Of a stretch of 41,870 bases of DNA, positions 3,973 to 41,870 are shown in pieces. The stretch is taken from the NCBI GenBank assembly GCA_020048255.1, contig JAIFMR010000203.1:1-41870 (forward strand), written 5' to 3'. How positions within the stretch are numbered: the first letter of the stretch is position 1; every line of letters begins with the position of its first letter. Under the pieces are notes generated by a model. It was given only the letters and a program-made list of their open reading frames with translations, did not search any database and had not been told where the DNA came from. This DNA is from Rhodoferax sp. Lineage in GTDB: Bacteria > Pseudomonadota > Gammaproteobacteria > Burkholderiales > Burkholderiaceae_C. A program made the translations under genes and the position numbers.

Positions 3973-4926
3973 ATGTGCCAATTACTTGGAATGAACAGTC
4001 ACCTGCCGGCCAGCTTGACGCTGAGTTTTACCGGTTTTTCGCAGCGTGGCGGCGGTACCGACCACCATGCGGACGGCTGGGGCATTGCATTTTTTGAGAG
4101 CAATGAATCCAAGCCCGGCAAGGGCATACGGCATTTTGTCGACAAAACGAGTGCCGCCACCTCGCCGATCGCGCAGATGCTAAAGAACTACCCCATCAAA
4201 AGCCACAACGTGGTGGCTCATGTGCGCAAAGCCACCGTTGGCCAGGTGACGCTGGAAAACACCCACCCTTTTGTGCGCGAATTGTGGGGTCGCTATTGGG
4301 TGTTTGCCCACAACGGTGATTTGAAAAACTATGCACCCTATCTGCACGGCCATTTCAAGCCGGTCGGCAATACCGACAGCGAACAGGCCTTTTGCTGGAT
4401 CATGCAGGAGTTGGCCAAATCTCACGCGGATGTTCCGACCGTTGACGAACTCACCCGCACTTTGCAAGAACTGGTCCCGCAAATTTCCAAACACGGCACT
4501 TTCAATTTTTTACTCAGCAATGGCCAGGCGTTATGGGCCCACGCCACCACCAAGCTGTGTTACGTGCTGCGAGCGCACCCGTTTCACCAAGTGCATCTGA
4601 AAGATGAAGATGTGACTGTGAATCTGGCGTACCTCAACAGCCCCGAGGACCGGCTGGCCATCGTTGTGACCGAACCACTCACCACCGACGAAGACTGGAC
4701 GGTGTTTGCCCCCGGTGAGCTCAATGTGTTTGTGGACGGCACCCTGGCCCATTGCAGTTGCCAGTGCGCGGCACCCCCACGCCCAGCGCCTGTCACCGAC
4801 CCCAACAGCCCGGTACCCGTAGTGTCCGAAGGACCTGCGCCTCAGTGCGAGCGCGCCTGCGCCGCTTCAAGTGCCTGCACAAACATGGCCGCCACATCAA
4901 ACCCGGTCTGCTCGGTGATCTCCTGA
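3973..4926 (+). CDS. class II glutamine amidotransferase, YafJ/EgtC/Dug3-like Ntn hydrolase
   Basis: Start MCQLLGMN (Cys2 nucleophile) at ATG 3973. Motifs HHADGWGIAF, AHVRKAT, NTHPF, FAHNG, GNTDSE. The C-terminal tail overlaps gshB. Confidence 0.9.
   Translation: MCQLLGMNSHLPASLTLSFTGFSQRGGGTDHHADGWGIAFFESNESKPGKGIRHFVDKTSAATSPIAQMLKNYPIKSHNVVAHVRKATVGQVTLENTHPFVRELWGRYWVFAHNGDLKNYAPYLHGHFKPVGNTDSEQAFCWIMQELAKSHADVPTVDELTRTLQELVPQISKHGTFNFLLSNGQALWAHATTKLCYVLRAHPFHQVHLKDEDVTVNLAYLNSPEDRLAIVVTEPLTTDEDWTVFAPGELNVFVDGTLAHCSCQCAAPPRPAPVTDPNSPVPVVSEGPAPQCERACAASSACTNMAATSNPVCSVIS
4085..4145 (+). repeat. dispersed ~60-bp motif, degenerate copy inside the yafJ-like gene
   Basis: TTGCATTTTTTGAGAGC|AATGAATCC|AAGCCCGGCAAGGGC|ATACGGCA|TTTTGTCGACAA; same 17/9/15/8 spacing as the other copies; spans the extra peptide SNESKP. 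Confidence 0.45.
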
Positions 4927-5807
4927 AAGCAGGTTGGACTGGTGACATTGATTTCGGTCAGGCTGTCACCAATCACATCCAGGCCAATCAGTAGCAAGCC
5001 CCGCGCGGCCAACTTCGGACCGATCGCCAGGGCGATTTCGCGATCGCGCGCGCTCAGAGGTTGCGCCAAACCTTTACCGCCCGCAGCCAAGTTGCCACGG
5101 ACTTCGCCACCTTGGGGGATCCGGGCCAAACAATAGGGCACTGGCTCGCCGTCAATCACCAGGATGCGTTTATCGCCTTGGGCGATGGCTGGCAAAAATT
5201 TTTGCACCATCACTGTTTGGGCACCATCTTTGTTCAGGGTTTCAATGATGGCGCCCAGGTTCAAGCCATCTTCTTTGACCCTAAAAATCCCCATGCCACC
5301 CATACCGTCGAGGGGTTTCAAGATGATGTCCCGGTGCTCCGCATGAAAGCGCCGAATGTCAGGATCACGGCGCGTCACCAGCGTCGGGCCAATGAACTGG
5401 GGAAACTCCAGAATCGCCAGTTTCTCTGGGTGATCGCGCAAGGCGCGTGGCTTGTTGAACACCCGAGCACCTTCACGCTCGGCTTGCTCCAGCAGGTGGG
5501 TGGCATAAAAAAACTCAGCATCAAACGGCGGGTCTTTGCGCATCACCACTGCATCAAAATCCTTCACTGCTCGCTGCAGCTCATGTGGCGCTGAAGGCGC
5601 CTCCACAAACCAATCCACCGGATGGCCCGTCAGCGTGATGCGGCTCACAGTCGCTGTGACCGGTGCACCACACTGCCACGAGATATCTTTCGGTTCACAG
5701 ACACTGATGCGATGACCCCGCCGCTGTGCCTCACGCATCATGGCAAAGGTAGTGTCCTTATAAATTTTGAAGGATGTCAAAGGATCAGCCACAAACAGCA
5801 AGTTCAT
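4842..5807 (-). CDS. gshB: glutathione synthetase
   Basis: KIYKDTTFAMM, MRKDPPFD, KPLDGMGGMGIF, RGNLAAGG, TEINVTSPT. Confidence 0.97.
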   Translation of the reverse strand: MNLLFVADPLTSFKIYKDTTFAMMREAQRRGHRISVCEPKDISWQCGAPVTATVSRITLTGHPVDWFVEAPSAPHELQRAVKDFDAVVMRKDPPFDAEFFYATHLLEQAEREGARVFNKPRALRDHPEKLAILEFPQFIGPTLVTRRDPDIRRFHAEHRDIILKPLDGMGGMGIFRVKEDGLNLGAIIETLNKDGAQTVMVQKFLPAIAQGDKRILVIDGEPVPYCLARIPQGGEVRGNLAAGGKGLAQPLSARDREIALAIGPKLAARGLLLIGLDVIGDSLTEINVTSPTCFQEITEQTGFDVAAMFVQALEAAQARSH

Positions 5808-5842
5808 CAGCGCATTACTCCTGCGGTTTCATCCGCGATATG

Positions 5843-7711
5843 TCAGATTTCAATCTTCGAACCCAACTCCACCACCGAGTTACTGGGCAGATTCAAGAAG
5901 TCGGCCGCACCGCTGGCGTTCAGGTGCATCTGGGCAAAGAGTTTTTCGCGCCACTGTGCCATGCCGCCACCCAGCGTGGGCGTGACCGTATCACGGCTGA
6001 GGAAATAACTGGTGGTCATGGGTTCGAGGTCACAGCCACGTCCCTTGATGTGCTGCAAGGCCTTGGGCAAGTCCGGGTCATTCTTGAAACCGTAATTCAC
6101 CATCACTGCCCAGCAGTCGTGCCCAAGGGACTCGACAACCAGTCGCTTGTCCATACCGATCCAGGGCACCTCGTGGTTGCGCACCGTTACAAACAAATTG
6201 ATTTCATGCAACACCTTGTTGTGTTTGAGGTTGTGCAACATGGCATTGGGCACTGTGCCCGGCTCGGCTGTCAAAAACACGGCCGTGCCGGCGACCCGCA
6301 CGGGCGGACTGACAAAAACCGCCTCGAGAAAGCTGTCCAGGTCAATGGCATCCACCTTGAGTTTCTGATTCAACAGGCGACGGCCGTCTTTCCAGGTCAG
6401 CATCACGGTGAACACCGCACTGGCAATCAGCAAAGGGAACCAGCCGCCATCCACCAGTTTGACCATATTGGACGCAAAAAAAGCCAGGTCCACCACAAAA
6501 AAGACACCCGTGGCAGCCAAGCACAAGGCCAATGGGTAATGCCAGGCATAACGGATCACAAAAAAGGTCAACACCGTGGTGATCAGCATGTCCAGGGTGA
6601 CCGCAATCCCGTAGGCTGCGGCGAGGTTGCTCGACGACTTGAACAACACCACCGCCAACACAATCAGGACGAACAAGCCCCAGTTCACAAACGGCATGAA
6701 GATTTGACCAGTCTCCTTGACGCTGGTGTGCCACACCTGGAAACGCGGCAAATATCCCAACTGGATCACTTGTTTCGTCACCGAAAAGGCTCCGGTGATC
6801 AGCGCTTGCGAGGCAATCACCGTGGCCATTGTGGCAAGACACACCAGCGGCACCAGGGCCCACGCGGGCGCCATCATGAAGAACGGATTTTTAACTGCTG
6901 CGGGGTTGCTCAACAACAAGGCACCCTGGCCAAAATAATTCAAGGTGAGTGAAGGCATGACGACAAAAAACCACGCCAAGCGAATCGGTTTTTTACCAAA
7001 ATGACCCATGTCGGCATACAGCGCTTCCCCCCCCGTGACGCAAAGCACCACCGCACCCAAAATGATGAAGGTGGTGCCCGGGTTCTCCCACATGAAGCCC
7101 AGCGCGTAATGCGGGCTCATCGCCCACAACACTTCCGGCGTTTGTGCAATATGAGACACCCCCAGCACAGCAATGGTGGCGAACCACACCAGCGTGACCG
7201 GGCCAAAGAACTTGCCAATGTCTGCTGTGCCCCGTTTTTGCACAAAAAACAAACCAAACAGAATCACCAGGGTCAGCGGAATCACCGCCCTTTTGAAGGC
7301 AGGGGACACCACCTCCAGACCCTCCACCGCCGAAAGCACTGAAATGGCCGGGGTGATCACCCCATCGCCATAGAACAAGCAGGTGCCAAAAATACCCACC
7401 AAAAGCAGGAGACGCCGCAATTGAGGCTTGTCCTTGACCGACTGCGAGGCCAACGCCAACATGGCCACCAGGCCACCCTCCCCGTTGTTGTCGGCACGCA
7501 GCACCAGGGTGACATATTTAAGAGAGATGATGACGGTGAGCGTCCAGAAAAAAATGGACAAGATACCGAGCACGTTGTCATGGGTGAAAGGAACATGACC
7601 CGAGCCAAAGACTTCTTTGACGGCATAGAGCACGCTGGTGCCAATATCACCGTAAACCACACCGATGGCGCCCAGTGTGAGCGCACGCAAAGACGTTTGA
7701 GAAGTTGCCAA
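5843..7711 (-). CDS. kup: KUP/HAK/KT potassium transporter
   Basis: [45 protein letters not shown]. Start uncertain (TTG 7711 or ATG 7750). Confidence 0.95.
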
Positions 7712-7822
7712 GCAGTCACCCAGCACCCCGGGGGCTGGGCTCCATGTCATAAGGAAGCGCTATTTTGCGTCAGAAAGACGGCCACGCCACTGACCCACCC
7801 ACCAATCTGTCAACGCCAGATG

Positions 7823-9118: not shown

Positions 9119-9178
9119 GTGAAACCTTGAAAAGTGAACATATCAATTTTAGAACCCGACGCTGCTTGGCGCGTTCAA

Positions 9179-10513
9179 TCAGCCACGTACTTCGCCCTGG
9201 CCCAGCACCACGTACTTGAGCGAGGTCAGGCCTTCAATGCCCACCGGACCGCGGGCGTGAAACTTGTCCGTGCTGATGCCAATCTCGGCGCCCAGCCCAT
9301 ATTCAAAACCATCAGCAAAGCGGGTGCTGGTGTTGACCATGACGCTGGCCGAGTCGACTTCACGCAGGAACTGCTGCGCATGCAGGTGGTCTCGGGTGAG
9401 GATGGCGTCAGTGTGATGGCTGCTGTACTGATTGATATGGGCAATAGCGGCTTCCACACCTTCCACCACCTTGATGCTGATGATAGGTGCCAGGTACTCT
9501 TCAAACCAATCGGACTCGGTCGCAGCCACCCATACCGGCGCCGCAGATGCTACTGATTCAGTAGCATATTGCGCTTTCTGGACGGGGGCGAGAGGCCAAT
9601 TTTCTTTAAGAATCTGAAGCGCTTGCGGGTCGCAGCGCATCTCCACACCCTTGGCGGCATAGACTGCACCGATCAGCGGCAAAAACTCTGCCGCGACGCC
9701 GCGCGCTACCAACAGGCTCTCGGTGGCATTGCACGGGCTGTACTTATTGGTTTTGGCGTTGTCCGCCACCTTGACAGCCATCGCAATGTCACACGGATCG
9801 TCCACATAGGTGTGGCAATTTCCGTCCAGGTGCTTGATGACAGGCACCTTGGCATCGCGACTGATGCGCTCAATCAGCCCCTTACCACCGCGTGGGATGA
9901 TCACATCGACATACTGTGGCATGGCAATCAGCTGCCCAACCACCTCCCGGTCGGTGGTTTGCACCAGTTGCACCGCGTTTTCAGGCAAGCCACTGTCTGC
10001 CAAAGCCTGCTGCACCAGCCTGGCCAGCGCCTTGTTGGAGTCAATGGCCTCCGAGCCGCCCCGCAAAATGCAGGCATTGCCGCTTTTGATGGACAGGCTG
10101 GCAGCCTCAATGGTGACGTTGGGCCGACTTTCAAAAATCATGCCAAACACACCAATCGGCACCCGCATTTGCCCGACCCGGATGCCGCTGGGTTGCTCGC
10201 GCATGCCGGTGATTTCGCCAATCACATCGGCCATGGCTGCCAACTGCTCGCAACCCTGAGCGCAGGTTTCAATCACTTTAGGCGTTAATTTCAAACGGTC
10301 GACCATGGGCGCCGACAAGCCTGCAGCCGTGGCACGGCTCAAGTCCTCGGCATTGGCCGTTTGCAGCGTGTCCACATTGGCTCGAAGCAAGTCCGCCAGG
10401 CGCCTCAGAGCTCTGTTTTTAATAGCTGCTGGCGCTTTCGCCATCAGGGCTGAGGCCTGTTTTGCTTGCAAACCCAGAGTTTGGGTAACGGCGGCAATGT
10501 CGATGGCGTTCAT
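9179..10513 (-). CDS. proA: gamma-glutamyl phosphate reductase
   Basis: [61 protein letters not shown]. Confidence 0.97.
9547..9609 (+). repeat. dispersed ~60-bp motif, best-preserved copy, in-frame insertion in proA (antisense to the gene)
   Basis: GCTACTGATTCAGTAGC|ATATTGCGC|TTTCTGGACGGGGGC|GAGAGGCC|AATTTTCTTTAA. The head lies in a perfect 10-bp inverted repeat ATGCTACTGA-T-TCAGTAGCAT (9547-9567). Confidence 0.75.
10410..10470 (+). repeat. dispersed ~60-bp motif, copy in the 5' part of proA (antisense)
   Basis: GCTCTGTTTTTAATAGC|TGCTGGCGC|TTTCGCCATCAGGGC|TGAGGCC|TGTTTTGCTTGCA (fourth block 1 nt short). Confidence 0.7.
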
Positions 10514-10546
10514 GTCTTGTCAATTCATTCAATGTCTGGGTGACTG

Positions 10547-11589
10547 CTAGGGCGAAACGCGGTGGCGTGAGGGAACCATTTTTGCAGATGCACTGGGCGC
10601 GGCACACGCATGACACAGCCCCAGCGCCAACCGGTGCAAAGCTTGCCACGCATCTGCGGGCCATTCGGGTATTTTCAAGCCCTTGACGATGCCATCCACT
10701 TGGTGCGCACTGTGCAGCAAGTTCACCAGCGTGGCCTCCGTCAAGCGCGGCAAGATGCGTTCAAACAAGCGCTCTTTCACGCCCCAGACACGCTGATCAC
10801 GCAGGGCCATGGGCAATGGCTTGCCTTGGCGCATGGCATCCTTGACCCGCTTGAGGGCACGAATATCCTCGCTTAACGTGTAGTGCACCAACACTTCTGC
10901 CTCGCCCTCCGCCTGCAAGCCATCGAGCATGCGCTGCACCCGCATCGCCTGGCCGGCCAATACCGCCTCACTGAGCTTGAACACGTCATAACGCGCCACA
11001 TTGAGCACCGCGCTTTCGATCTGCTCAAAACTGAGCTCACCCGCCGGGTGCAACAAAGACAATTTCTGGATTTCCTGGTGTGCCGCCAGCAAGTTGCCCT
11101 CCACCCGGTCAGCGAAAAACTGCAAGGTGCGCTGCCCCTCTTCACCGGCACTCACCCGTTGGCCCTGAGCTGCCAGGCGCTGAGCAATCCATTGCGGCAA
11201 GGCCGCGCGCTCGATCGTTTGGTCAACTTGTCCAGACGAGGCAGGATCACCAGCGTCAAGGTTGCATCATTGCCCTGTGCTTGGCTCGCCATCTGCTGCA
11301 AGGCCGCGCTGCCCTCTTTGCCTGGTTTGCCACTGGGAATGCGCAGTTCGACCATTTGCTTGTCAGCAAACAAGCTCAGGGAACCACACGCAGCCAGCAC
11401 CTCGCTCCAGTCAAAATGGGCACCCGAGACAGTGTGCGAGGTCCGTTCGCTGAATCCCTGTGCGCGTGCCACCGCCCGAATGGCATCCAGGGCCTCTTGA
11501 ATCAACAGCGGCTCGTCTCCATGCAGGGTGTACAGGCTTTTCAAGCCCTTGTTCAGATGAGCCGATAACTGGGCAGGGTTGACTTGCAT
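10547..11589 (-). pseudogene. holA: DNA polymerase III delta subunit, frameshifted in this sequence by an apparent internal deletion at ~11217/11218
   Basis: 5' frame MQVNPAQL...LYTLHGDEPLL...SLSLFAD...LPRLDKLTK. After 2 stray nt (CG) a second frame reads IERAALPQWI...VEGNLLAAHQEIQKL...ARYDVFKL. The usual intervening ~20 residues are absent. May be an assembly error. Confidence 0.88.
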
Positions 11590-11868
11590 AACGCTCGAGT
11601 GTAGTGATCTTGTACCCACCGAAGTAGGACCAACCAAGGGGACAACCACCCCGTCTCGCCCAGATTTTTTGAGTTAAGTCGAACTTTTTTAGTCAAAAAT
11701 TGATGTTCCTTTGATGTAACCGTCAGCTTATCAGTGGACTCGGTTCTTAAAATTCCGCCATGGGCTGTTGATCTGCGGGTGTAAGCGGCAGTCAACCCAG
11801 CTCTTCAAGGTTGCCGCTGATTCATCATCAGCCAAAATTTTTAATTTCAACTTAAGGACCTACCTGCC

Positions 11869-13719: not shown

Positions 13720-13739
13720 GTTTTGCGCTCAACCCAGCA

Positions 13740-13771
13740 CCAAGCCCATCCGCCGATGCGGGTGGGCTTGG
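13740..13771. terminator. GC-rich hairpin between convergent pckG and lptE
   Basis: CCAAGCCCATCCGC-CGAT-GCGGGTGGGCTTGG: 14-bp stem with one G.T pair; weak U tail. Confidence 0.65.
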
Positions 13772-13799
13772 CGTTCAATTCTGTCGCGTGTGATGCCGC

Positions 13800-14309: not shown

Positions 14310-14317
14310 GGTCGCCC

Positions 14318-17092
14318 TTACACCACCAAGTTGACCAAGCGACCTGGCACCACAATCACCTTTTTGGGCGCGGCACCGTGGGCCAGTTTCTGGAACACCT
14401 CGTTGGCGATGGCCGCCTGTTCAATCGCCGCCTTGTCCGCGCTGGCACTCACCACAATCGAGCCACGCAGCTTGCCATTGACCTGCAACATGAGCTCGAC
14501 CTCGTCTTTCACCAAGGCATCAGGATCCACCTGGGGCCAGGGCGCATCGAGCAAATCCCCCAAAGCATGGGCGTAGCCCAACTGCGACCACAAGGCATGA
14601 CTGATGTGCGGCGTCGCCGGGTACAGGCAGCGCAGCAAGACGCCAAAACCTTCAATCAAAGCCACTTGGGCCCCTGCGCAGTCCAGTGCCTTGAAGTCTT
14701 CCAGGGCATTGATCATCTTCATGGCGCCACTGACCACGGTGTTGTATTGCATGCGCTGGTAGTCGTAGTCAACCTGCTTGAGCACCGTGTGAATTTCCAG
14801 CCGGAGGGCCTTGGCTTGCCCATCAAACTCTATATCTTTGAGGCCTGTAGCCCTTGTGATAGTTGCGTTAGCAGCTTCGAAATTCATAGTGGATAATTTG
14901 ACGCCAAAGTTCCAGACGCGACGCAGAAAACGGTAGCTGCCTTCCACTGCCGCATCGTTCCACTCCAGCGTGGCCTCAGGCGGCGCCGTGAACATGGTGT
15001 ACAGGCGGGCCGTGTCAGCACCGTATTTTTCAATGAGATCCTGCGGATCCACACCATTGTTTTTTGACTTGGACATGGTACCCACGCCCTCGTAGTCAAT
15101 GGGCGTGCCGACCGGCAAATCACCCACAGCGTTGACCAGGCGTGCACCAGTGACTTTGCCAGCGTCATCAAAGACGTGTTCCACATTGCTGGGCCAGAAG
15201 TAATCCTTGCCACCCTTGTCGGTGCGGCGGGAGTAAATGTGGTTGAGCACCATGCCTTGCGTGAGCAGTTTGGTGAAGGGTTCATCGACCTTGACCAACC
15301 CCAAATCGCGCATCACCTTGGTCCAGAAACGCGCGTACAGCAGGTGCAGGATGGCATGTTCGATACCGCCAATGTACTGGTCCATCGGCATCCAGTAGTC
15401 AGCCCCCTGCGCCACCATCTTGTCGGCGTTGGTCGGGTCGCAGTAGCGCATGAAATACCACGAGCTGTCGACAAAGGTGTCCATGGTGTCGGTTTCGCGC
15501 CGCGCGGGCTTGCCGCAGACGGGGCAGGTGACACCGGCGTGGAATGCTTCGCACTTGTTGAGCGGGTTACCCGAGCCGTCCGGCACCAGATCAACCGGCA
15601 GCACCACCGGCAGGTCTTTTTCAGGCACCGGCACCGCGCCGTGTTCGTCGCAGTGGATGATCGGAATCGGTGTGCCCCAGTAACGCTGGCGGCTCACACC
15701 CCAGTCACGCAGACGCCAGGTAACTTTTTTCTCACCCAGACCCAGGGCGGCCAGATCCGCTGCCACGGCGGCGACACAGTCCTTAAACACCAAACCGTCG
15801 AATTTGCCCGAGTTGATGGCCACACCAGCGCCTTTTTCGGCGTACCAGTCCTCCCAGACCGACGTATCGAAATCCCGATAGGCCGGGGCAGCCGGTGCGC
15901 CGAGTGACGATGTTGAGCTTGCGTCTGAGGAGCCCGGCGTACTGGATGCCCCGGCCGAAACAGCCACCACCGGTTTGATCGGCAATTGGTACTTCAGGGC
16001 AAATTCAAAGTCGCGCTCGTCATGCGCCGGAACACCCATCACTGCGCCATCGCCGTAACTCATCAGCACGTAGTTGCCCACCCAGACTTCCACCTGCTCA
16101 CCCGTCAGCGGATGCGTGACAAACAACCCTGTGGGCATGCCTTCCTTTTCCTTTACCGCCATTTCGGCTTCGGTGGTACCACCCTTCTGGCACTCCTCAA
16201 TGAACGCAGCCAATTTCGGGTTGCTGGTCGCGGCATGCACCGCCAAGGGATGCTCTGGTGCTACCGCGCAAAAGGTCACACCCATGATGGTGTCGGGCCG
16301 GGTGGTGAATACATACATAAGCCCCTCACCGATCAGTTTGCCTGACGCATCGGCAGTGTTGTGCGGGAACGCAAACCGCACCCCCTCGCTCTTGCCAATC
16401 CAGTTTTCCTGCATCAGCTTCACACGATCGGGCCAGCCCGGCATCCTGTCGCCAGTGACGTTGGCCAAAAGCTCCTCAGCGTACTGGGTGATCGCTAAGT
16501 AGTACCCGGGAATTTCACGCTTCTCCACCACAGCGCCGGTACGCCAGCCCTTGCCGTCAATGACTTGCTCGTTGGCCAGCACCGTCATGTCCACCGGGTC
16601 CCAGTTCACCACCTGGGTCTTGCGGTAGGCAATGCCTTTTTCGAGCATCTTCAAAAACAGCCACTGGTTCCACTTGTAGTACTCAGGGGTGCAGGTAGCC
16701 ACCTCGCGGCTCCAGTCAATGGCTAAGCCCATGGCCTGCATCTGCTGCTTCATGTAAGCGATGTTCTCGAAGGTCCACTTGGCGGGTGGCACGCCGTTTT
16801 TGAGTGCCGCGTTTTCGGCGGGCAGGCCAAAGGCGTCCCAGCCCATCGGCATCAATACGTTGTAACCTTGCATGCGCAACTGGCGCGCCAGCATGTCGTT
16901 GATGGTGTAGTTGCGCACATGACCCATGTGCAACTTACCGCTGGGGTAGGGCAGCATGGAGCAGGCGTAAAACTTCTTTTTCGGTTGGCCATTGACGTCC
17001 CGGGCATTTTCAGTCACACGGTAGGCGTCAGTCGCCTGCCAATGCGCCTGCGCAGCGGGTTCAACGTCAAGGTGGTTGTATTTTTCTTGCAT
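14318..17092 (-). CDS. leuS: leucine--tRNA ligase
   Basis: ATG 17092 (MQEKYN). [13 protein letters not shown] (HIGH motif), FTTRPDT and [13 protein letters not shown] (CP1 editing domain), [16 protein letters not shown]. Confidence 0.98.
14830..14890 (-). repeat. dispersed ~60-bp motif, copy inside leuS (sense)
   Basis: ACTATGAATTTCGAAGC|TGCTAACGC|AACTATCACAAGGGC|TACAGGCC|TCAAAGATATAG; an AT-rich patch encoding [20 protein letters not shown]. Confidence 0.7.
15881..15956. repeat. 76-bp palindromic (REP/MITE-like) element in frame within the leuS editing domain
   Basis: Perfect terminal IR GGCCGGGGCA / TGCCCCGGCC. The stem extends to 22 positions (19 Watson-Crick, 2 G.T, 1 mismatch). Encodes the Ser-rich [25 protein letters not shown]. 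Confidence 0.7.
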
Positions 17093-17618: not shown

Positions 17619-18272
17619 TTAGGCGCTGGCCGGGGTGCTTTGACTCATCAGCTCACGCAGATCTCGTGCAAAGCCTTCCAGTTCAGCTTCAATGCTGGCC
17701 ACCACGCGACCCATGACGTTGTAAGCCAGGACAGCCGGGATGGCCACCATCAGGCCCGCTGCAGTCATGATGAGCGATTCACCCACCGGGCCGGAAATTT
17801 TGTCAATCGTCACCTGTCCTGTGGATGCCATGCCCATCAGCGCGTGATAGATGCCCCACACCGTTCCGAGCAAGCCCACAAACGGTGCCGTTGCCCCCAC
17901 GGTGGCCAACAACACCTGGCCATGTTGCAACTTGGCCAGCGCGCCATGCAAAGCATTACGCAACACACGCGTGAGCTGCTGCGCCCGACCACCCGCATGG
18001 GCCAGACTCTGATTTGCTTCAATTTGAGTCGCATTCACCAAAGGCAGGACGAGGGCTTCCCGGTCAAAAGCTTTGATCTTGTGGATGGCTTCATTCAGGT
18101 CGGTAGACTGCCAGAAGGCAGCAATGCTGCGTGCCACATCCTGACTGGCTCGGCGCAACAGCCAGGATTTCCACAAAATCACCACCCAACTTCCGACCGA
18201 CATGGCCAGCAGCAGCAAGGCCACACCCCTCGCTAGCGCGTCACCTTGCCAGAAGAACTGGGCTATGTTCAT
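17619..18272 (-). CDS. exbB: MotA/TolQ/ExbB proton channel protein
   Basis: [45 protein letters not shown]; adjacent to exbD. Confidence 0.88.
18016..18076 (+). repeat. dispersed ~60-bp motif, degenerate copy inside exbB (antisense)
   Basis: GCTTCAATTTGAGTCGC|ATTCACCAA|AGGCAGGACGAGGGC|TTCCCGGT|CAAAAGCTTTGA; shares GACGAGGGC with the uvrA copy at the same offset. Confidence 0.5.
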
Positions 18273-22356: not shown

Positions 22357-23343
22357 ATGCTCAATATCTTCACCCTAGCCAACGGACGGCTGTTCCAAGA
22401 GGAAATCGAATCTCTGGAAGAGCTCTCGCGTTTTCAGCCCATTTGGGTTGACCTGGAGTCCCCAACACTCGAGGAAAAGCGCTGGATCAAACAGTATTTT
22501 GGTCTATCCATTCCTGAAGACGCAATGGATGAGGACATTGAGGAATCGGCACGCTTTTACAAAGAAGACAACGGCGAATTACACATTCGCAGTGACTTTT
22601 TAGTCGCAGACAACGACGAACCCCACACGGTGCGGGTGGCTTTCATCCTGAATCTGGAAAACGACGAGCTCAAGAGCAAGGGCGTTTTATTTTCCATCCA
22701 CGAAGAAGACGTGCCGGTATTTCGGCTGCTGCGCATGCGGGCACGGCGCGCGCCTGGCCTGATCGAAGACGCCAAGGAAGTGCTGCTCAAATTGTTCGAC
22801 GCTGATGCCGAGTACTCCGCAGATACGCTGGAAGAAATTTACGACGAATTGGAAAAAGCCAGTGCCAAAGTGCTCTCAGGCGACGTGACCGACGCCCTGG
22901 CGGGTGAGGTGCTCGGCGCCATTGCCCGCCATGAAGACATGAACGGGCGCATACGCCGCAACGCCATGGACACCCGGCGTGCCGTGAGTTTCATGATGCG
23001 AACCAAGATGCTCAATGGGGAGCAGTTTGAAGAAGCACGCCAAATTTTGCGTGACATTGACTCCCTCGACTCCCACACGGCATTTCTGTTTGACAAGATC
23101 AACTTCTTGATGGACGCAACGGTCGGCTTCATCAACATTAACCAGAACAAGATCATCAAAATCTTTTCAGTGGCCAGTGTGGCCCTGCTGCCACCGACAC
23201 TCATTGCCAGCATTTACGGCATGAATTTCAAGTTCATGCCTGAACTGGATTGGCAGGCGGGCTACCCGTTTGCCCTGGGTTTGATGCTGTGCAGCGCATT
23301 GATTCCGATGTGGTACTTCAGAAAACGCGGCTGGCTCAAATAA
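22357..23343 (+). CDS. corA: magnesium/cobalt transporter CorA
   Basis: DIEESARF, NQNKIIKIFS, LPPTLIASIYGMNF..MPEL. Confidence 0.97.
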   Translation: MLNIFTLANGRLFQEEIESLEELSRFQPIWVDLESPTLEEKRWIKQYFGLSIPEDAMDEDIEESARFYKEDNGELHIRSDFLVADNDEPHTVRVAFILNLENDELKSKGVLFSIHEEDVPVFRLLRMRARRAPGLIEDAKEVLLKLFDADAEYSADTLEEIYDELEKASAKVLSGDVTDALAGEVLGAIARHEDMNGRIRRNAMDTRRAVSFMMRTKMLNGEQFEEARQILRDIDSLDSHTAFLFDKINFLMDATVGFININQNKIIKIFSVASVALLPPTLIASIYGMNFKFMPELDWQAGYPFALGLMLCSALIPMWYFRKRGWLK

Positions 23344-23400
23344 GCAAGAAAAGCTTTTCGCCCTTATCCAGACTGCGTGAATAACTACAATTTTGGAAGC
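23340..23400 (-). repeat. dispersed ~60-bp motif filling the mtnN/corA convergent junction
   Basis: GCTTCCAAAATTGTAGT|TATTCACGC|AGTCTGGATAAGGGC|GAAAAGCT|TTTCTTGCTTAT. The head contains the mtnN TAG; the tail reaches the corA TAA. Confidence 0.7.
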
Positions 23401-24146
23401 ATCTGAACAAACTGGCTGAGCACGGCAAAGGCATACGGACTGGCCACCTTTTGCACAAAGGCCGAAAAATCCACATGCGCTGTCGCGTCAGCCCGATCTG
23501 AAATGGTGCGTAAAGCCGCAAACGGCACATCGTAATCCCGACACACCTGGGCCACTGCGGCACCTTCCATTTCAACAGCCAGCGGCGCAAAGCCAAAAGT
23601 CTGCATATCGCACATCATCCTGACTGCCACTTCTGCACTGGAGACAAACTGGTCGCCACTGGCGATCAGGCCGGCGTGCACCCGTGGCGCCATCAATAAC
23701 TTGTCATGATGGAAATGGTCTCCCACCCCCGCCAAACCTACATGAGCAGCTTCCAAAAGAAGAGCAGTCAAACCCTCATCGCAGGGCAGTGAGGCGCGCC
23801 CATACAACGGAATTTCATAACGGGCGAAGAGCGGTGAAGAATCCAGGTCGTGGTGAATGAACTCGCGGGCAACCACCACATCACCTACCTTGACTCCGGC
23901 ACTCAAGCCACCCGCCACGCCGGTAAACACCACGCGCTGCGCCTGAAAAGCCTCAATGACAGCGGTGGTGGTGGTAGCTGCCGCGACCTTGCCCACCTTG
24001 GTCAGCGCCAAAACAACCTCATGGCCGTGCCATTGACCACACCAAAACGTCCGCCCCGCCCGCTTGACCTTCCGTGGGTGCGCCAACTCTTCCAGCAAGC
24101 CGCGCTGCTCGTCAAGCAACGCGCTCAGAATAGCCAAGGTAGCCAA
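23385..24146 (-). CDS. mtnN: 5'-methylthioadenosine/S-adenosylhomocysteine nucleosidase
   Basis: VGKVAAA, VFTGVAGG, IASGDQFV, AVEMEGAAVAQVC, LRTISDRAD; TTG start. Confidence 0.93.
   Translation of the reverse strand: MATLAILSALLDEQRGLLEELAHPRKVKRAGRTFWCGQWHGHEVVLALTKVGKVAAATTTTAVIEAFQAQRVVFTGVAGGLSAGVKVGDVVVAREFIHHDLDSSPLFARYEIPLYGRASLPCDEGLTALLLEAAHVGLAGVGDHFHHDKLLMAPRVHAGLIASGDQFVSSAEVAVRMMCDMQTFGFAPLAVEMEGAAVAQVCRDYDVPFAALRTISDRADATAHVDFSAFVQKVASPYAFAVLSQFVQMLPKL
23704..23765 (-). repeat. dispersed ~60-bp motif, copy inside mtnN (sense)
   Basis: GCTCTTCTTTTGGAAGC|TGCTCATGT|AGGTTTGGCGGGGGT|GGGAGACC|ATTTCCATCATGA; encodes LLLEAAHVGLAGVGDHFHH. Confidence 0.6.
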
Positions 24147-29760: not shown

Positions 29761-30929
29761 GCACCGTGACGCTACGCCAGCGAGTTGTGGTGGGTTTGAG
29801 CGGCGGGGTCGACTCTGCTGTCACGGCCTGGCTGCTCAAGCAACAGGGCCACGAGGTTCTGGGCATCTTCATGAAAAATTGGGAAGATGACGACAACAGC
29901 GCCTACTGCTCATCCAACGAAGACTTTGTCGATGCTGCCGCCGTGGCGGATGTGATCGGTATAGAGATCGAACACGTCAACTTTGCAGCAGACTACAAAG
30001 ACCGGGTATTTGCCGACTTTTTGCATGAGTACCGCAGCGGCCGCACACCCAACCCGGACATTTTGTGCAATGCCGAAATCAAGTTCAAAGCCTTTTTGGA
30101 CCACGCCATGCGCCTGGGTGCCGACAAAATCGCCACCGGTCACTACGCCCGGGTTCGCTTGAACCCAGCAACTGGCCTGCATGAGTTGCTCAAGGGCCTG
30201 GACCCGGCAAAAGACCAAAGCTATTTCTTGCACCGTCTCAATCAGGCACAACTCTCCAAAACCTGGTTTCCAGTGGGCGAGTTTCTCAAAACCGAGGTAC
30301 GAAGAATCGCTCAGGACATCGGCCTGCCCAACGCCAAGAAGAAAGACTCCACCGGCATCTGTTTCATTGGCGAGCGGCCGTTTCGTGACTTTTTGAACCG
30401 GTACATTGCCAAAGAGCCCGGCCCGATCAAAAACGACAAGGGTCAGACCGTCGCGCAACACCTTGGACTGAGTTTTTACACTTTGGGGCAGCGTCAGGGC
30501 TTGGGCATTGGCGGACTCAAGGCCAAAGGGGCGCAACGCGGCGGCGGCGAACACGCGCCGTGGTTTGTGGCTCGCAAGGACATGAGCAGCAACACCTTGT
30601 GGGTGGTGCAAGGTCATAACCACCCCTGGCTGCAATCCCTGCACTTACAGGCCCAGCAGGCCAGTTGGGTGGCTGGCCACGCACCCGCGCCACGCACCCT
30701 AGCGGCGAAAACAAGATACCGCCAAGCCGACGCAGAGTGCGTTTTGCAAGATGTGGACGACAGCCACTTCGCACTGGGTTTCACCCAGGCGCAATGGGCC
30801 GTGACCCCGGGTCAGTCGGCTGTTTTGTACGACGGTGATATCTGCCTGGGTGGCGGCATCATCACCGACACGCAAGCCGCTGAAGAATCCAAAAACAATA
30901 GCAACCCACCCAATCAGAAAAACGGTTAG
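29757..30929 (+). CDS. mnmA: tRNA-specific 2-thiouridylase
   Basis: [53 protein letters not shown] start at 29757 (GTGA overlap) or 29766. Confidence 0.97.
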
Positions 30930-30947
30930 CGGCTATTTTGGCTTGAA
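30886..30947 (+). repeat. dispersed ~60-bp motif at the mnmA 3' end
   Basis: AATCCAAAAACAATAGC|AACCCACCC|AATCAGAAAAACGGT|TAGCGGCT|ATTTTGGCTTGAA; provides the tail [13 protein letters not shown] and the TAG stop. Confidence 0.6.
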
Positions 30948-31243: not shown

Positions 31244-31316
31244 GGCATCGTCTTCTGCTTGAGAATCGCACTGCTTGGCCCCACTGGCGCCGGGCGCGGG
31301 TGGGCATCCATCCGGA

Positions 31317-31541: not shown

Positions 31542-31563
31542 TTCATAACTCCATTTCAAAAAA

Positions 31564-32850: not shown

Positions 32851-32864
32851 GTTGTCTCCTGATG

Positions 32865-36161: not shown

Positions 36162-36162
36162 C

Positions 36163-37245: not shown

Positions 37246-37250
37246 TTATA
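37245..37250 (-). promoter_or_regulatory. consensus -10 box (TATAAT) upstream of the RND-sqr operon
   Basis: Exact TATAAT on the minus strand; no convincing -35. Confidence 0.45.
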
Positions 37251-37335
37251 TTAGAAGACCGCCTTTCGGCACGAATCTCCGAAGAAAGACCTCACTTCAA
37301 CTCGCAAAACCGCTCTGCACTGGCGCAGGCATGAC

Positions 37336-37827
37336 TCAAAACGGAATATCGTCGTCCATGTCATCAAAGCTACTGGCGGGTCGCGCAGCTGGCGCAGGTG
37401 CCGGGCGCGCAGCCGGGGCACTGGGGCGGGCCGCGGCTGGAGCTGGCCGGGAATACCCCCCACCTTCATCGTCGGCACTGGGCTCACCTCTGCCTTCGCG
37501 TCCACCCAGCAGTTGCATCTCATTGGCGATGATGTCGGTGGCGTATTTCTCAATGCCATCCTTGTCGGTGTACTTTCGCGTCTTGATGCGGCCTTCGACA
37601 TAAACCGGGTTGCCCTTTTTCAGATATTGGCTGGCAATTTCAGCCAGACGACCAAAAAATGTCACCCGGTGCCACTCGGTCTCTTCCACCATTTCACCGG
37701 TTTTGCCTTTGTAACGACTGCTGGTGGCGATGGTGATGTTGGCCACCGGGTCGCCGCTGGGCAAATAACGCACCTCGGGGTCGCGGCCCAGGTTGCCAAC
37801 AAGAATGACTTTATTTACAGAGGCCAT
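37336..37827 (-). CDS. ssb: single-stranded DNA-binding protein
   Basis: [25 protein letters not shown]-terminal DDDIPF. Confidence 0.98.
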
Positions 37828-37857
37828 GGTGATCCTAAATTGCAAACGATCACTTTA

Positions 37858-39051
37858 TCAGGCTTTGGCAGGGGGCAAAGAGCTGACCGACGCGGGCGCC
37901 TGCATCGGCCAGGCGACCAGCAACCACAAAATCATCAAAGCAGCACACCCGGCAAACAGAACACTGGCTCCACCATGCTTCATGACCCACCCGCCCACCA
38001 TGCCACCGGCAAAAAAACCCAGCGATTGCAATGTGTTGTACACCCCGATGGCCGCGCCCCGCGCCCGCGGCGGCGCCAGACGCGACACCATGCTGGGCTG
38101 ACTGGCTTCAAGCACATTGAAACCATAAAAAAACACAAACAACAAAGCACCCACCCCCATCAATCCGGGCGCGGACCCCACCTCAAGCCACAGACCGATC
38201 TCTACCAGAGCCAAGAGTCCGATCGACGTTAAGAACACGGCGCGCAAGTAGCCGCGCTTTTCCAGCTGAAACAAGCTGCCGCCCATCACCACAAAAGAGC
38301 CGAGAACCGCCGGCAGGTAGACCTGCCAATGGTGATCGCGTGCCAGCCCCGCCTGCACCAGCATGGCCGGCAGAGCCAGCCACATCGCCAGTTGCACCGC
38401 GTGCAACACAAACACGCCAAAGTTCAGCCGCAGCAGCGCGCTGGAGTGCAGCACATCCGCCAGGCGGCCACGGGGCTGATTCTTGTGCTCCAGCGGTTCT
38501 GGCGGAACCCACCAGATCACGGCAGCCACGCCCAAAACAGCCAGCAGCGCCGTCAAGCCAAAAATACCCACCAGCCCGATCCAGCCGGCCAACACGGGCG
38601 CGGCCACCAGCGACAGCGCAAACATCAAACCAATGCTGCCACCCACCAGCGCCATCGATTTGGTGCGCACCGCGTCACGCGTCTGGTCGGCCAGCAAGGC
38701 CGTCACCGCAGCCGATACCGCACCCGCACCCTGCACCGCACGCCCGATCGCCAACCACGTCAAGGTGGGCGCCAACGCCGCCACCAGGCTGCCCGCAGCA
38801 AACAGCAGCAAGCCAAAAACAATCACCGGCTTGCGGCCCAGCCGGTCAGAGGCCAGCCCGTAGGCAAACTGCAACAGGGCCTGTGTCAGGCCATAGATCC
38901 CCATGGTCAAACCGATCATGGCTGCGTCATCACCTCCCGGGTAACGCGCCGCCTCGATGGCAAAAACCGGCAGAATCAAAAACAGCCCCAGCATGCGCAA
39001 CCCGAAGATCGAGGCCAGCGACAAGCTGGCGCGCCATTCAAGTGCCGTCAT
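37858..39051 (-). CDS. MFS transporter, YajR-like
   Basis: LRMLGLFLILPV, motif A ASDRLGRKP, GRAVQGAGA, FNVLEASQPS; between ssb and uvrA. Start may be GTG 39096. Confidence 0.88.
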   Translation of the reverse strand: MTALEWRASLSLASIFGLRMLGLFLILPVFAIEAARYPGGDDAAMIGLTMGIYGLTQALLQFAYGLASDRLGRKPVIVFGLLLFAAGSLVAALAPTLTWLAIGRAVQGAGAVSAAVTALLADQTRDAVRTKSMALVGGSIGLMFALSLVAAPVLAGWIGLVGIFGLTALLAVLGVAAVIWWVPPEPLEHKNQPRGRLADVLHSSALLRLNFGVFVLHAVQLAMWLALPAMLVQAGLARDHHWQVYLPAVLGSFVVMGGSLFQLEKRGYLRAVFLTSIGLLALVEIGLWLEVGSAPGLMGVGALLFVFFYGFNVLEASQPSMVSRLAPPRARGAAIGVYNTLQSLGFFAGGMVGGWVMKHGGASVLFAGCAALMILWLLVAWPMQAPASVSSLPPAKA

Positions 39052-39334
39052 AACTGTCGAAGAGGAGGCGCTGGCAGAGACCAGAGCAGGGTTCACTTGA
39101 GACAAAGAATTTCTCCGAAAACACATCGACAACCCACACCGGGTTGCTGCGGCCGGATTGTCACTGATCAGGCTGGGTGCAGCGCGGTGAGGGTGCTGCG
39201 TGGCCAAATTGTGGTTTAGCGGGATAGGGCGCCACACTCAGCCGGGCATCAACCCCAAAGGATTGAACACACGACTTTGAATCGCACCCGGATTGGGCGG
39301 CAAAACTCCAGCTTGACTATCATGGTGGGTTTTC

Positions 39335-39350
39335 CGGTGTATTTTCACCG
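39335..39350. promoter_or_regulatory. possible degenerate LexA (SOS) box upstream of uvrA
   Basis: CGGT-GTATTTTC-ACCG, a symmetric variant of CTGT-N8-ACAG, 25 nt before the start codon. Confidence 0.3.
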
Positions 39351-39375
39351 CCCCTCATTTGTAAGCCGCCCCGCC

Positions 39376-41870
39376 TTGAACAACCCTACCGACCCCAGCC
39401 ACACCGCGCGCCCCGCCGATGGCAAATACCTCGCTGCGGCACTGCAGCACCAAACCATCAGCATTCGGGGTGCGCGCACTCACAACCTGAAAAACATTGA
39501 CCTGGACATCCCGCGTAACCAGTTGGTGGTGATCACCGGTTTGAGCGGCTCAGGCAAGTCCAGCCTGGCGTTTGACACGCTGTACGCCGAAGGCCAGCGG
39601 CGCTATGTCGAGAGCCTGTCGACCTACGCGCGCCAGTTTCTGCAGCTGATGGACAAGCCTGATGTGGATGTGATTGAGGGTTTGAGCCCCGCCATTTCGA
39701 TCGAGCAAAAGGCCACCAGCCACAACCCCCGCTCCACCGTGGGCACCGTGACCGAGATCCACGACTACCTGCGCCTGCTGTTTGCACGCGCTGGCACGCC
39801 CTACTGCCCCGAGCACGCTGTGCCACTGCAGTCGCAAACCGTCAGCCAAATGGTGGACGCCGTGCTGGCGCTGCCCGCCGACACCCGACTGATGATCCTG
39901 GCTCCGCTGGCGCGCGAGAAAAAGGGCGAGTTTCTGGAGGTGTTTGCCGACATGCAAGCCCAAGGCTATGTGCGTTTTCGCATCAATGGCGTGGCTTACG
40001 AGTTTGACCAGTTGCCCGCGTTGAAGAAAACCGAGAAACATGACATTGACGTGGTGATTGACCGCATCAAGGTGCGCCACGCGCCGCTATCCAACACCGT
40101 CGCGGCCAGCCCGGTGAATGAGGAAGATGCAGAGATCGACGCGGGCATCCTGGCCGCGCACGCCGACTTCGCTGCCCTCAAACAACGCCTGGCCGAAAGC
40201 TTCGAGGCCGCTCTGCGCCTGGCCAATGGGCGCGCCATTGCCATTGAAATGGATAGCACATCACGCAGTGATGACGAGGGCTACAAGCCAAAAGAGCACT
40301 TATTCAACGCCAAGTTTGCCTGCCCGGTATGCAGCTACAGCATCTCCGAGCTGGAGCCGCGCCTGTTCTCCTTCAATTCGCCAGTGGGCGCCTGCCCCAG
40401 CTGCGATGGACTGGGCCTGCAGGACTTTTTTGATCCGGCACGGGTGGTGGCTTTCCCGACGCTGAGCCTGGCCAGTGGCGCCATCAAGGGTTGGGACCGC
40501 CGCAATGCCTACTACTTTGCCATGCTGGAAAGCCTGGCGGCACACTACAAGTTTGACATTGAACTGGCGTTTGAACGCCTGCCGCCATCCGTGCAACAGA
40601 CCGTTCTTCACGGCTCGGGCGAAGAAGACATCAAGTTCTCTTACGCCATGGACTCTGGCAGCAGTGCGGGCAAGAAGGTCAGCAAAAAACACCCGTTTGA
40701 GGGCATCATTCCGAACATGCAGCGGCGCTACCGCGAGACCGACTCGGCGGTGGTGCGTGAAGATCTGGCCCGCTTGCGCAGCACCCAGCCCTGCCCGGAC
40801 TGCGGCGGCAGTCGCCTGCGCACCGAGGCACGTCACGTCAAAATTGGTGAGGGCGCCCAGGCGCGCGCCATCTTTGAGCTGAGCCACCACACACTGGCCG
40901 AATGTTTTGATTACTTCAGCCAACTCCACATGCACGGCGCCAAGGGCGACATTGCGGCCAAGGTGGTGCGCGAGATCAGCCTGCGCCTGAAGTTTCTCAA
41001 CGATGTGGGCTTGACTTACCTGAGCTTGGACCGCAGCGCCGAAACACTCAGTGGCGGGGAGTCTCAGCGCATTCGCCTGGCCAGCCAGATTGGATCGGGG
41101 TTGACGGGGGTCATGTACGTGCTTGACGAGCCCAGCATTGGCCTGCACCAGCGCGACAACGACCGCCTGATCGACACCCTGAAGCACCTGCGCGACATTG
41201 GCAACAGCGTGCTGGTGGTGGAACATGACGAAGACATGATGCGCGCCGCCGACCAGATCATTGACCTGGGACCCGGCGCCGGCGTGCACGGCGGGCGTGT
41301 CATGGCACAAGGCACATTTGACGAGGTCAAGGCCAACCCGCATTCCCTAACCGGCCAGTACCTGGCCCACACTCTGAAGATTGAGGTACCCGGCCAACGC
41401 ACTGCCTGGCTGCCATCCGAAGCACCTAAAGTCTTTAACGGCGGCAAACCCAGCCGCTTTGCCCCCAGCCCAGCCGCCATCAAGCGTGCCGCACGCGAAG
41501 CCGTGCACCTGTCGACCCAGGGGGACATGCAGGCCCTCAAAGTCATCGGTGCCAAGGGCCACAATCTGAAAAATGTGGATGCGGCGTTTCCGGTGGGCTT
41601 GTTCACCTGCGTCACCGGTGTATCGGGCTCGGGCAAATCTACCCTGGTCAACGACACACTTTACAAGGCCGTGGCGCGCACCATTTACCGCGCGCACGAC
41701 GAACCCTCCGAGCACAGCGCGATCGAGGGCATTGAGTACTTTGACAAGGTCATCAACGTCGACCAGTCGCCGATTGGCCGCACACCGCGCAGCAACCCCG
41801 CCACTTATACCGGCCTGTTCACCCCGATACGTGAGCTGATGGCCGAGGTGCCCACGGCGCGCGAACGCGG
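39376..41870 (+). CDS. uvrA: excinuclease ABC subunit A (3' end lies outside the window)
   Basis: Not in the ORF track because it runs off the window. Read directly from TTG 39376: [96 protein letters not shown]. Confidence 0.97.
40241..40302 (+). repeat. dispersed ~60-bp motif, copy inside uvrA (sense)
   Basis: CCATTGAAATGGATAGC|ACATCACGC|AGTGATGACGAGGGC|TACAAGCC|AAAAGAGCACTTA; encodes the extra loop [14 protein letters not shown]. Confidence 0.7.

Follow-up and report, generated by a model that had tools for sequence, protein, structure and literature searches.

A rigidly spaced ~65-base DNA motif in Rhodoferax and other Comamonadaceae, likely a protein-read tag of self DNA

Copies of the motif in the window

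The window, the whole 41,870-nucleotide stretch of contig JAIFMR010000203.1 (Rhodoferax sp.) that was analysed, carries nine copies of a rigidly spaced DNA motif of ~65 bases which occurs in hundreds of copies per genome in many Comamonadaceae. All nine sites listed in a preliminary description were found where they had been placed (the coordinate given there for minus-strand sites being the 5' end) and were observed to align without gaps in a 17/9/15/8/tail layout. Seven of the nine are strong, the exbB site is weak yet kept in relatives and the yafJ site is marginal. Outside these sites no position of the window reached 5 bits in a scan with the motif profile, which was trained on other contigs only, with JAIFMR010000203.1 left out.

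Two strong copies, both on the plus strand and antisense to their host, are located in proA (9179-10513, minus strand). The copy at 9549..9610 (52.4 bits) occupies an inserted loop that adds 18 residues relative to 4GHK; the G007 protein is 17 residues shorter and the G005 orthologue scores 50.2 bits. The copy at 10410..10471 (48.0 bits) overlays the N-terminal coding sequence with no gap relative to 4GHK or G007 and with the length unchanged, and its G005 orthologue scores 36.6 bits. A strong sense copy is found in leuS (14318-17092, minus strand) at 14829..14890 on the minus strand (48.1 bits). This site scores 24-53 bits in nine motif-bearing relatives whereas seven motif-free relatives give -35 to 12 bits, and the peptide length is unchanged in two of the latter (G008 and G004).

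Minus-strand copies were also observed in mtnN (23385-24146, minus strand). One overlaps the stop codon (23339..23400, 41.5 bits) and is kept at 32-60 bits in G009, G010 and G018. The other is a sense copy inside the gene (23704..23765, 22.5 bits) that scores 21.6-32.7 bits in five motif-bearing relatives; at this site G008 is of equal length without a match and G007 is 9 residues shorter. A plus-strand copy overlaps the mnmA stop codon (30886..30947, 38.1 bits), and G009 has a copy of 56.3 bits at the equivalent place. In uvrA (39322 to the window end, plus strand) the sense copy at 40241..40302 on the plus strand (33.2 bits) lies in a variable loop that is 11 residues longer than in 2R6F and about 5 longer than in 9GA5.

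The two remaining sites are on the plus strand. The exbB/tolQ-like gene (17619-18272, minus strand) carries an antisense overlay at 18016..18077 (15.6 bits) with no length change; the site scores 10.7-26.4 bits in six relatives, and no copy was found there in G008, G018 or G004. The sense copy at 4085..4146 (9.7 bits) in the yafJ-like glutamine amidotransferase gene (3919-4926, plus strand) is probably a worn one. Its loop is 6 residues longer than in PDB 1TE5, and the G005 and G007 orthologues are of equal length with no match of at least 8 bits. It had been proposed that some copies add residues while others overlay ordinary coding sequence, and both kinds are present, the former in yafJ, uvrA and the proA loop and the latter in exbB and the proA N-terminus. 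Overlay is the commoner: the peptide length is equal in 69 of the 102 covered orthologue comparisons. Four metagenome contig sets, which are mixtures of many organisms, gave no usable pair of filled and empty sites.

Genome-wide recognition and architecture

The 2.3-Mb assembly contains 320 profile matches as compared to 0-1 in shuffled sequence. At a threshold of at least 20 bits, 317 matches were found genome-wide and none in a locally shuffled genome, and at a threshold of at least 8 bits the respective numbers are 369 and 4. When all genes were recoded synonymously, the 147 in-gene matches dropped to 8-9. Furthermore, the spacing is preserved among the additional matches, with 275 head-to-middle distances at offset 0 and no more than 3 at any other offset, and 269 middle-to-right distances at offset 0 against none elsewhere; the A/T tail is the sole part that slides, by 1-2 bases. 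The motif is therefore confirmed to be real. Its earlier estimated frequency of about one per 5 kb holds approximately in the window (one per 5-6 kb) but not genome-wide, where copies are sparser (one per 7.2 kb). The reported lack of copies in the RND-sqr block and in the 676-aa (FimV-like) gene was reproduced (best scores about -10), but it is uninformative because a 6.6-kb core block, fadD-pntAB, is also without copies.

The motif is built on two dyads, GCT-N11-AGC centred at position 9 and CGC-N11-GSG centred at position 32, so that both spacers are 11 bases long and the centres lie 23 bases apart. A near-invariant core (A15 in 289 and G16 in 285 of 291 copies, those columns being masked when scoring) is surrounded by weaker flanks and A/T tracts. 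The information amounts to 42 bits over about 67 positions as compared to the 13.8 bits needed. Mean identity among copies is 48% and the median identity to the nearest neighbour is 66%. In G000, Watson-Crick pairing does not differ from chance at any of the 20 stem pairs and a G-G mismatch is fixed in the inner dyad; no consistent pairing excess was observed in G177. The folding energy (-6.6 kcal/mol) is close to that of column shuffles (-6.2 kcal/mol). Rfam gave no match at gathering in the window, and in 20 loci no family matched over the motif at E-values of up to 1. A hairpin or RNA structure is ruled out by these observations, and the rigid spacing, the 48% identity and the absence of covariation in either stem together indicate that the motif behaves as a duplex-DNA site. 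A peptide-level cause is ruled out by the loss of signal on synonymous recoding.

Coupling is confined to adjacent bases, for example AA/TT at positions 52-53. The A/T runs were not found to be phased with the helix, as their top period is about 8 bases and not one helical turn. The IHF and Fis consensuses were compared with the motif by eye and do not fit.

Genomic distribution and codon effects

The two strands are used equally (160 matches on each), as are the sense and antisense orientations that had been noted earlier. Copies inside genes make up 46% (147) and mostly leave the protein length unchanged, while 100 of the 320 are intergenic, which is about a three-fold enrichment of intergenic DNA. 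The in-gene copies are read in two preferred open frames and their hosts are housekeeping genes (aroA, aroE, carB, guaA, truB, lpxB, murD, murG, purH, comEC and others). The motif imposes rare codons, with an adaptation of 0.43 as compared to 0.71, and copies are fewest in the most codon-biased genes. With contig GC taken as a proxy for acquired DNA, low-GC contigs hold 0.46 copies per 10 kb against 1.5-1.8 on typical contigs. The copies are unclustered (14 gaps below 500 bp with 20 expected, thus fewer close pairs than random), the spacing between them is slightly more even than random, and no signal of target duplication was seen. An apparent replichore polarity came from plus-only listings and was a listing effect, which disappeared in the full lists and in 400 kb of G177. 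In the matches listed for A. temperans, a single short stretch with minus-strand copies only still stands out.

Conservation, dialects and loss

Orthologous sites were kept in 31 of 42 comparisons with motif-bearing relatives but in only 1 of 60 with motif-free relatives. Of 150 genera sampled in the family, 38 have the motif in abundance, while most of the others are at background level; Rhodoferax ferrireducens BE313 has 1024 matches and G115, a single contig, has 622. Two sites in comEC are common to several genera, one being found in four and the other in two. Within the genus the motif was lost at least twice, with nested losses in the groups {G007, G008} and {G001, G004, G014, G015, G016}. 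Individual genomes also have their own spellings. As an example, C39 occurs in 16 of 28 G003 copies as compared to 20 of 320 in G000, and GG at positions 36-37 occurs in 30 of 44 G005 copies as compared to 28 of 320. Orthologous sites tend toward the spelling of their own genome, although the paired dialect comparisons by themselves do not reach significance (p = 0.06 and 0.10). In G108 both arms of the inner dyad have changed together.

The pattern of retention and erosion, the repeated losses, the own spellings and the patchy spread across genera point to a dispensable, lineage-specific binding factor. Four observations support the earlier view that the code acts at the DNA level: the rigid spacing, the lack of stem covariation, the loss on recoding and the restriction of orthologous retention to motif-bearing genomes. 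The motif is likely a protein-read tag of self DNA.

Comparison with other repeats

Several features resemble REP/BIME repeats with their RAYT and terminal inverted repeats with TIRYT (PMC3733652): imperfect palindromes, an RTAG tetranucleotide, enrichment in intergenic DNA and at 3' ends, some in-frame copies and a copy close to a Y1 transposase. The motif could be a very old REP/MITE-like element that was spread by a domesticated Y1 (RAYT/TIRYT) transposase, which lies upstream of gltB, and whose copies were later retained. A single-copy NF047646 transposase is indeed present with GGGGWSAS-type inverted repeats, and of 18 loci examined 9 have a full copy or head adjoining its inner repeat on one side. 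Non-carriers lack Y1_Tnp more often than carriers do (9 of 36 against 2 of 44, p = 0.01). The tetranucleotide at positions 13-16, RTAG, is similar to the GTAG tag, and the copies in inserted loops, the intergenic enrichment and the joint change in G108 also agree with this origin. However, all 20 searched genomes of the genus have the transposase irrespective of whether they carry the motif, and the search did not find it in G115, despite the many matches there, or in G146. The missing covariation, the G-G mismatch, the folding energy, the lack of target duplication, the nearest-neighbour identity and the many in-gene copies without added length also argue against it, and in contrast to REP/TIR repeats the motif forms no dimers or arrays, has low mean identity, is mostly overlaid and not inserted, and has orthologous sites common to several genera. 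We consider this origin distinctly unlikely. Four names related to Comamonadaceae are absent from the main text of PMC3733652.

The in-frame copies in housekeeping genes with two preferred frames are also reminiscent of Rickettsia palindromic elements and bacterial MITEs, but here the insertion length is not fixed (0 to +18 aa), target sites are not duplicated and the motif is conserved column-specifically in place. Among the analogies drawn in the preliminary description, uptake sequences fit best, while those to REP, RPE and MITE break down over the data on hairpin covariation, on clustering and on target duplication. Two abundant repeats are known from the same family. VeiPR1 of Verminephrobacter eiseniae (PMC3975124) makes up 2.3% of its genome and a MITE has been reported in Polaromonas JS666 (PMC10969869); either could be the motif under another name. 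VeiPR1 is set apart by description only, as the accessible part of its source calls it unique to one species and the motif occurs in many genera. The Burkholderiales-1 RNA motif and the Betaproteobacterial repeat element (BRE) are likewise multicopy in Comamonadaceae genomes. The former, in the accessible part of its description, is unlike the motif in being a GC-rich hairpin, and R. ferrireducens T118 has 4 BRE copies against the 1024 motif matches in BE313, a comparison of counts only. The motif was not described in the literature searched, with two possibly relevant sources lying outside that search.

Candidate readers of the motif

Our leading reading, held tentatively and at slightly less than an even chance, is that the motif is a DNA uptake sequence of a third and much longer kind, spread by molecular drive. 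In this model the transformation machinery of the type IV pilus would include a surface receptor that binds the motif in double-stranded form, presumably as a two-fold symmetric protein oligomer, and favours the uptake of fragments that bear it. Biased uptake followed by homologous recombination would spread mutations that improve the match, so that permissive codons would come to carry the motif on one strand or the other, and short replacement patches might seed copies with variable length change. Receptor drift would yield genome-specific spellings, and loss of the receptor would let all sites decay together.

As in the USS of Pasteurellaceae and the DUS of Neisseriaceae, hundreds to a thousand copies are dispersed over the two strands, where they occupy permissive stretches of core genes and are rare in atypical DNA and in genes under strong constraint. 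The small invariant core with A/T tracts is USS-like and the lineage dialects are DUS-like. The motif differs in its length of about 65 bases with two dyads (their core is 9-12 bases, and the extended USS is about half as long as the motif), in being several times sparser (one per 4-7 kb), in forcing rare codons, in its repeated loss within one genus and in that a receptor was not found among the families tested. The scarcity of USS/DUS in atypical DNA and in the most codon-biased genes (PMC7811141) matches the pattern seen here; dialects are described for DUS (PMC3630211). USS frames, in contrast to the rare codons forced here, correlate with preferred codons (PMC2817400).

Partner profiling covered 80 chosen genomes (44 carriers and 36 non-carriers), and none of seven families (ComEC, Y1_Tnp, ComP_DUS, PilB, HHH_3, PilQ and Pilin) tracks the motif convincingly. 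This includes the ComP_DUS-family pilins, as PF16732 is near-universal among the genomes profiled, and the major pilins; no tracking was seen for ComEA-type domains, whose counts are left out because the family search missed a gene that G008 has. No PilB over the cut-off was found in 2 of 44 carriers and in 7 of 36 non-carriers (p = 0.07), a signal noticed after the fact in one of seven families, with p = 0.02 before G012 was included as a carrier. Gene-by-gene subtraction against about a quarter of the G008 genome gave no convincing candidate besides PilB. The non-carriers G004 and G014 retain every tested uptake family, and the carrier G082 (100% complete, 202 matches) has no ComEC over the cut-off. 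comEC is broken or shortened in G036, G138, G178 and G009, and carriers with a broken comEC retain the motif.

This persistence is in keeping with an intracellular site, in which a dispensable nucleoid protein, a LysR-like tetramer or a topoisomerase-associated factor would bind the two dyads and selection on chromosome structure or supercoiling would maintain each site. The dyad geometry, with a T-N11-A head like that of LysR sites, the adjacent-base coupling, as in shape readout, and the slightly even spacing agree with such a site, and the retention and erosion data fit it equally well. Against it, the information is far above need, the A/T profile does not peak at one helical turn, ori-ter polarity is absent and at least two losses occurred in one genus without visible harm. 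We know of no precedent for 300-1100 sites of 42 bits held at the cost of amino-acid changes in core enzymes, and this reading appears unlikely, if clearly more credible than a REP/MITE origin. Any other biased transfer or protection followed by recombination (a packaging signal, a conjugal transfer site or a nuclease-protecting self mark) would presumably produce such a distribution as well, and single matches were seen in 29 viral contigs and 4 plasmid records. No candidate machinery was found for these routes; an RNA role has no Rfam match, and a peptide role is excluded because sense and antisense are used equally and the signal is lost on recoding. Together we regard them as very unlikely.

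Implications

Sequence-specific uptake signals are described for only two bacterial families in the accessible parts of the literature. On balance we think it probable that Comamonadaceae have independently evolved a third code by which self DNA is recognised in DNA exchange, namely a two-dyad site of 65 bases with a putative receptor or, if the reader is cytoplasmic, a new class of chromosome-wide landing code. If so, such a code is strong enough to rewrite codons of core enzymes, and its dialects drift with the receptor and collapse on its loss. The hundreds of in-gene gains, the respelling per lineage and the repeated loss in one genus form a natural experiment, and the reader factor should therefore be findable by presence/absence profiling. 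The motif also accounts for many odd features of the genomes that carry it, which are common in freshwater and soil: AT-rich patches, loops, gene ends and runs of rare codons.

Uptake in the symbiont Verminephrobacter eiseniae, a member of the family, is reported to be sequence-selective and pilus-dependent, with the signal not named in the accessible part of the source (PMC4212676). The motif makes this question directly testable in culturable, competent Acidovorax. A. temperans is reported to be naturally competent (PMC4212676), and 635 matches were found in strain DSM 7270, which may differ from the strain used there. Against the uptake reading, the accessible part of the same source reports no transformants for A. 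delafieldii, yet a metagenome-assembled genome of that name (L048) was observed to have a motif match.

Motif copies in the window and in the source assembly

All nine sites listed in the preliminary description were located where it placed them, and they align without gaps. A profile seeded with these sites, and retrained only with contigs other than the window (contig C94 of the source assembly G000; 2.32 Mb, 236 contigs, 54% complete, 58% GC), was used to scan the assembly, as had been proposed. A total of 320 matches of at least 18 bits were found, 160 per strand, with two loci contributing to both strand counts; a locally shuffled version of G000 yielded a single match at 16 bits and none at 20 bits. 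In the window, seven sites have scores of 22-52 bits; exbB scores 15.6 and yafJ 9.7, and the scan found no further copy there reaching 5 bits. Host genes are named from NCBIfam matches, and the yafJ-like label is based on a match to PDB 1TE5 together with the earlier labelling.

The 676-residue ORF at window positions 1704-3734 (minus strand), previously labelled FimV-like, has no NCBIfam match. holA (10547-11649) is divided between two overlapping frames (10547-11200 and 11152-11649), each matching TIGR01128, which reflects either a frameshift or an assembly error. Unrelated to the motif, another repeat family in G000 is GC-rich and numbers about 10-17 near-identical copies, CCAAAGCCCGGTCGCC being one example.

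Anatomy of the motif

Information extends over about 67 positions. Positions 1-17 form the head dyad, GCT-N11-AGC, which is centred on position 9 and A/T-rich in its middle; it is followed by an inner dyad, CGC-N11-GSG (positions 24-40, centre 32), whose arms span roughly 21-43; an AGGC block and then an A/T tail lie 3' of it. Mean identity among copies is 48%, and 66% (median) between nearest neighbours. Conserved spacing had been described from the nine sites and was borne out genome-wide, with offset 0 in 275 matches versus at most 3 at any other and, for the other spacing, 269 versus 0; the tail is the sole part that slides. When positions 13-17 were masked in the search, A15 was still present in 289 of 291 matches and G16 in 285, and therefore this core is not a search artefact.

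Watson-Crick pairing is at chance level for all 20 candidate stem pairs in G000 and without consistent excess in 88 copies of G177, a compared genome. The strongest column couplings are between neighbouring bases, folding energy is scarcely above that of column shuffles, and Rfam gave no match. We infer that the motif is a site recognised as duplex DNA. Matches in another genome, G108, form a dialect with both inner-dyad arms altered together, which is compatible with a symmetric dimer or with a stem. A less likely reading, a cytoplasmic organiser binding the motif, fits the two-dyad anatomy and all the comparative data but does not account for the excess of information (42 bits in total versus the 13.8 bits required to locate 320 sites).

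Placement in genes and along the genome

Our own hexamer gene caller, which is approximate (89% coding), places 147 copies in G000 within genes, 73 across a gene end and 100 between genes; 130 of the 147 are at least 90 bases from either gene end. Two mostly stop-free frames are used by 49 of 66 sense and 64 of 81 antisense copies. A DNA-level code had been suggested, and recoding all genes by genome codon usage left only 8-9 matches versus the 147 in-gene copies; codon adaptation within copies is 0.43 versus 0.71. Motif strand is not associated with GC skew (135 versus 153, p = 0.32) and copies are not clustered in G000; in the complete match lists of G037, G048 and G177 the strands are mixed. 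Density per 10 kb is 0.46 on contigs below 55% GC versus 1.5-1.8 above 57%.

Range across genomes

A strict pattern matched 121 loci in the GTDB collection, from 4 of its 64 parts. The 80 loci listed carry Rhodoferax, Polaromonas, Acidovorax, Giesbergeria, Albidiferax, Alicycliphilus, Comamonadaceae or generic MAG labels, two being from one MAG titled Candidatus Egaibacter; the family name Comamonadaceae is taken from these titles. A looser pattern, run on 150 family genomes (one per genus), gave 67-1118 matches in 38, 19-41 in 6 and 0-11 in 106, the last being the level of the reversed-pattern control. Twelve genomes from other families gave control-level matches only, and five named genomes gave 490-1024 (635 in A. 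temperans DSM 7270). The motif is real, widespread and under selection as DNA. Single strict, high-scoring matches were found in each of 29 viral contigs (L425-L453), a few apparently in frame within methyltransferase-like genes as judged by eye (L437, L428), and four plasmid records match one copy.

Of 18 relatives in the genus, 11 carry 155-822 matches and the other 7 carry 7-30 (controls 8-22). In a LeuS tree (one gene, midpoint root) these seven non-carriers form two groups, G001, G004, G014, G015 and G016 (100/99) and G007 and G008 (91/86), each nested among carriers. G008 has 4 copies in 0.70 Mb versus 97 expected. All four (L506, L475, L490) are strong and sit no further than 9 kb from a contig start, which may be meaningless, as most contigs were sampled only in their first stretch, or may mark recently acquired DNA.

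Evolution at orthologous sites

Twenty-nine of the 147 in-gene copies, from 11 contigs selected because they hold many copies or were of interest, were traced into five genomes. The orthologous site reaches at least 14 bits at 14/21 covered sites in G003 and 17/21 in G005, and at 0/20 in G008, 1/21 in G014 and 0/19 in G034 (another genus); peptide length is the same at 17, 15, 15, 13 and 9 sites, respectively. The two modes noted previously both occur: copies in aroE, truB, lpxB, carB, exbB and the proA N-terminus overlay ordinary sequence, and the internal proA (+18 residues), uvrA and yafJ copies are in longer loops. A repeat spread by a transposase, an improbable reading, may account for the motif's origin and the inserted copies but fails to explain overlay without length change or the missing covariation. 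No target duplication flanks the copies.

Identity between orthologous copies is 84% in high-information columns versus 65% in low (rho 0.56, 25 pairs). Spelling varies between genomes, and orthologous sites lean towards that of the host. For example, C39 occurs at 6/11 G003 sites versus 1/11 in G000 (paired p = 0.06), and GG at 36-37 at 7/14 G005 sites versus 2/14 (paired p = 0.10), biases which are significant against G000 genome-wide rates and not as paired tables. Two sites in comEC are common to different genera. The sites are therefore old, are preserved column by column where they stand, and decay jointly in some lineages, a pattern very probably left by a dispensable reader acting in trans.

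A proposed uptake signal and the search for a reader

In its genomics the motif behaves like the USS and DUS uptake sequences of Pasteurellaceae and Neisseriaceae (features in PMC7811141, PMC2817400, PMC3630211 and PMC2397512), with membership putative. By this analogy, molecular drive would explain how a 42-bit site comes to be inscribed in core genes, in either orientation and with no regulatory logic, and would account for the avoidance of atypical DNA, the dialects and the joint decay. A DNA uptake signal is our preferred reading, tentatively proposed; it is weakened by the motif's length, low density and codon cost, and by damaged comEC in carriers and a missing receptor. According to PMC4212676, DNA uptake in V. 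eiseniae depends on the pilus and is selective for sequence, and A. temperans is competent.

Our literature searches found no description of the motif, which is apparently undescribed as such. Term searches for Comamonadaceae-related names in the main text of PMC3733652, PMC6006769, PMC12306157, PMC3372372 and PMC11893778 gave nothing, and PMC2864571 and PMC3110155 concern other elements. Possibly the motif is already named as VeiPR1 (PMC3975124) or the Polaromonas MITE (cited in PMC10969869).

In 80 selected genomes, 44 of them carriers and 36 non-carriers (related genomes among them do not count as independent), the presence of seven families was compared with that of the motif. No tracking of the motif was seen for ComEC, PilQ, ComP_DUS, HHH_3 or Pilin. 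Several motif-rich genomes have an altered or undetected comEC: the gene is split by 20-30 kb in G009 and G178, carries a frameshift in G036, is shortened in G138 and was not found in G082. Gene subtraction against a quarter of the G008 genome gave no better candidate, and G000 itself is so incomplete that a reader gene may be lacking from it.

A Y1 transposase (230 residues, single copy; contig C49, L222:4179-4871), just over the NF047646 cut-off, lies upstream of gltB in G000. Throughout the family the gene keeps this place (L222, L182-L203) and has conserved inverted repeats; at 9 of the 18 loci examined, those of motif-free G007 and G008 among them, a motif copy or head adjoins the inner one. 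The gene is missing from 2/44 carriers versus 9/36 non-carriers (p = 0.01); it is present in 20/20 genomes of the genus, and none was found in the complete genome of the carrier G115. PilB is missing from 2/44 carriers versus 7/36 non-carriers (p = 0.07), and within the genus from 2/13 versus 4/7 (p = 0.12). G008 (98% complete) has no PilB over the cut-off, and its contig C15 carries an esterase-like gene (L483:10780-11650) between ftsY and pilC, the position of pilB in G000.
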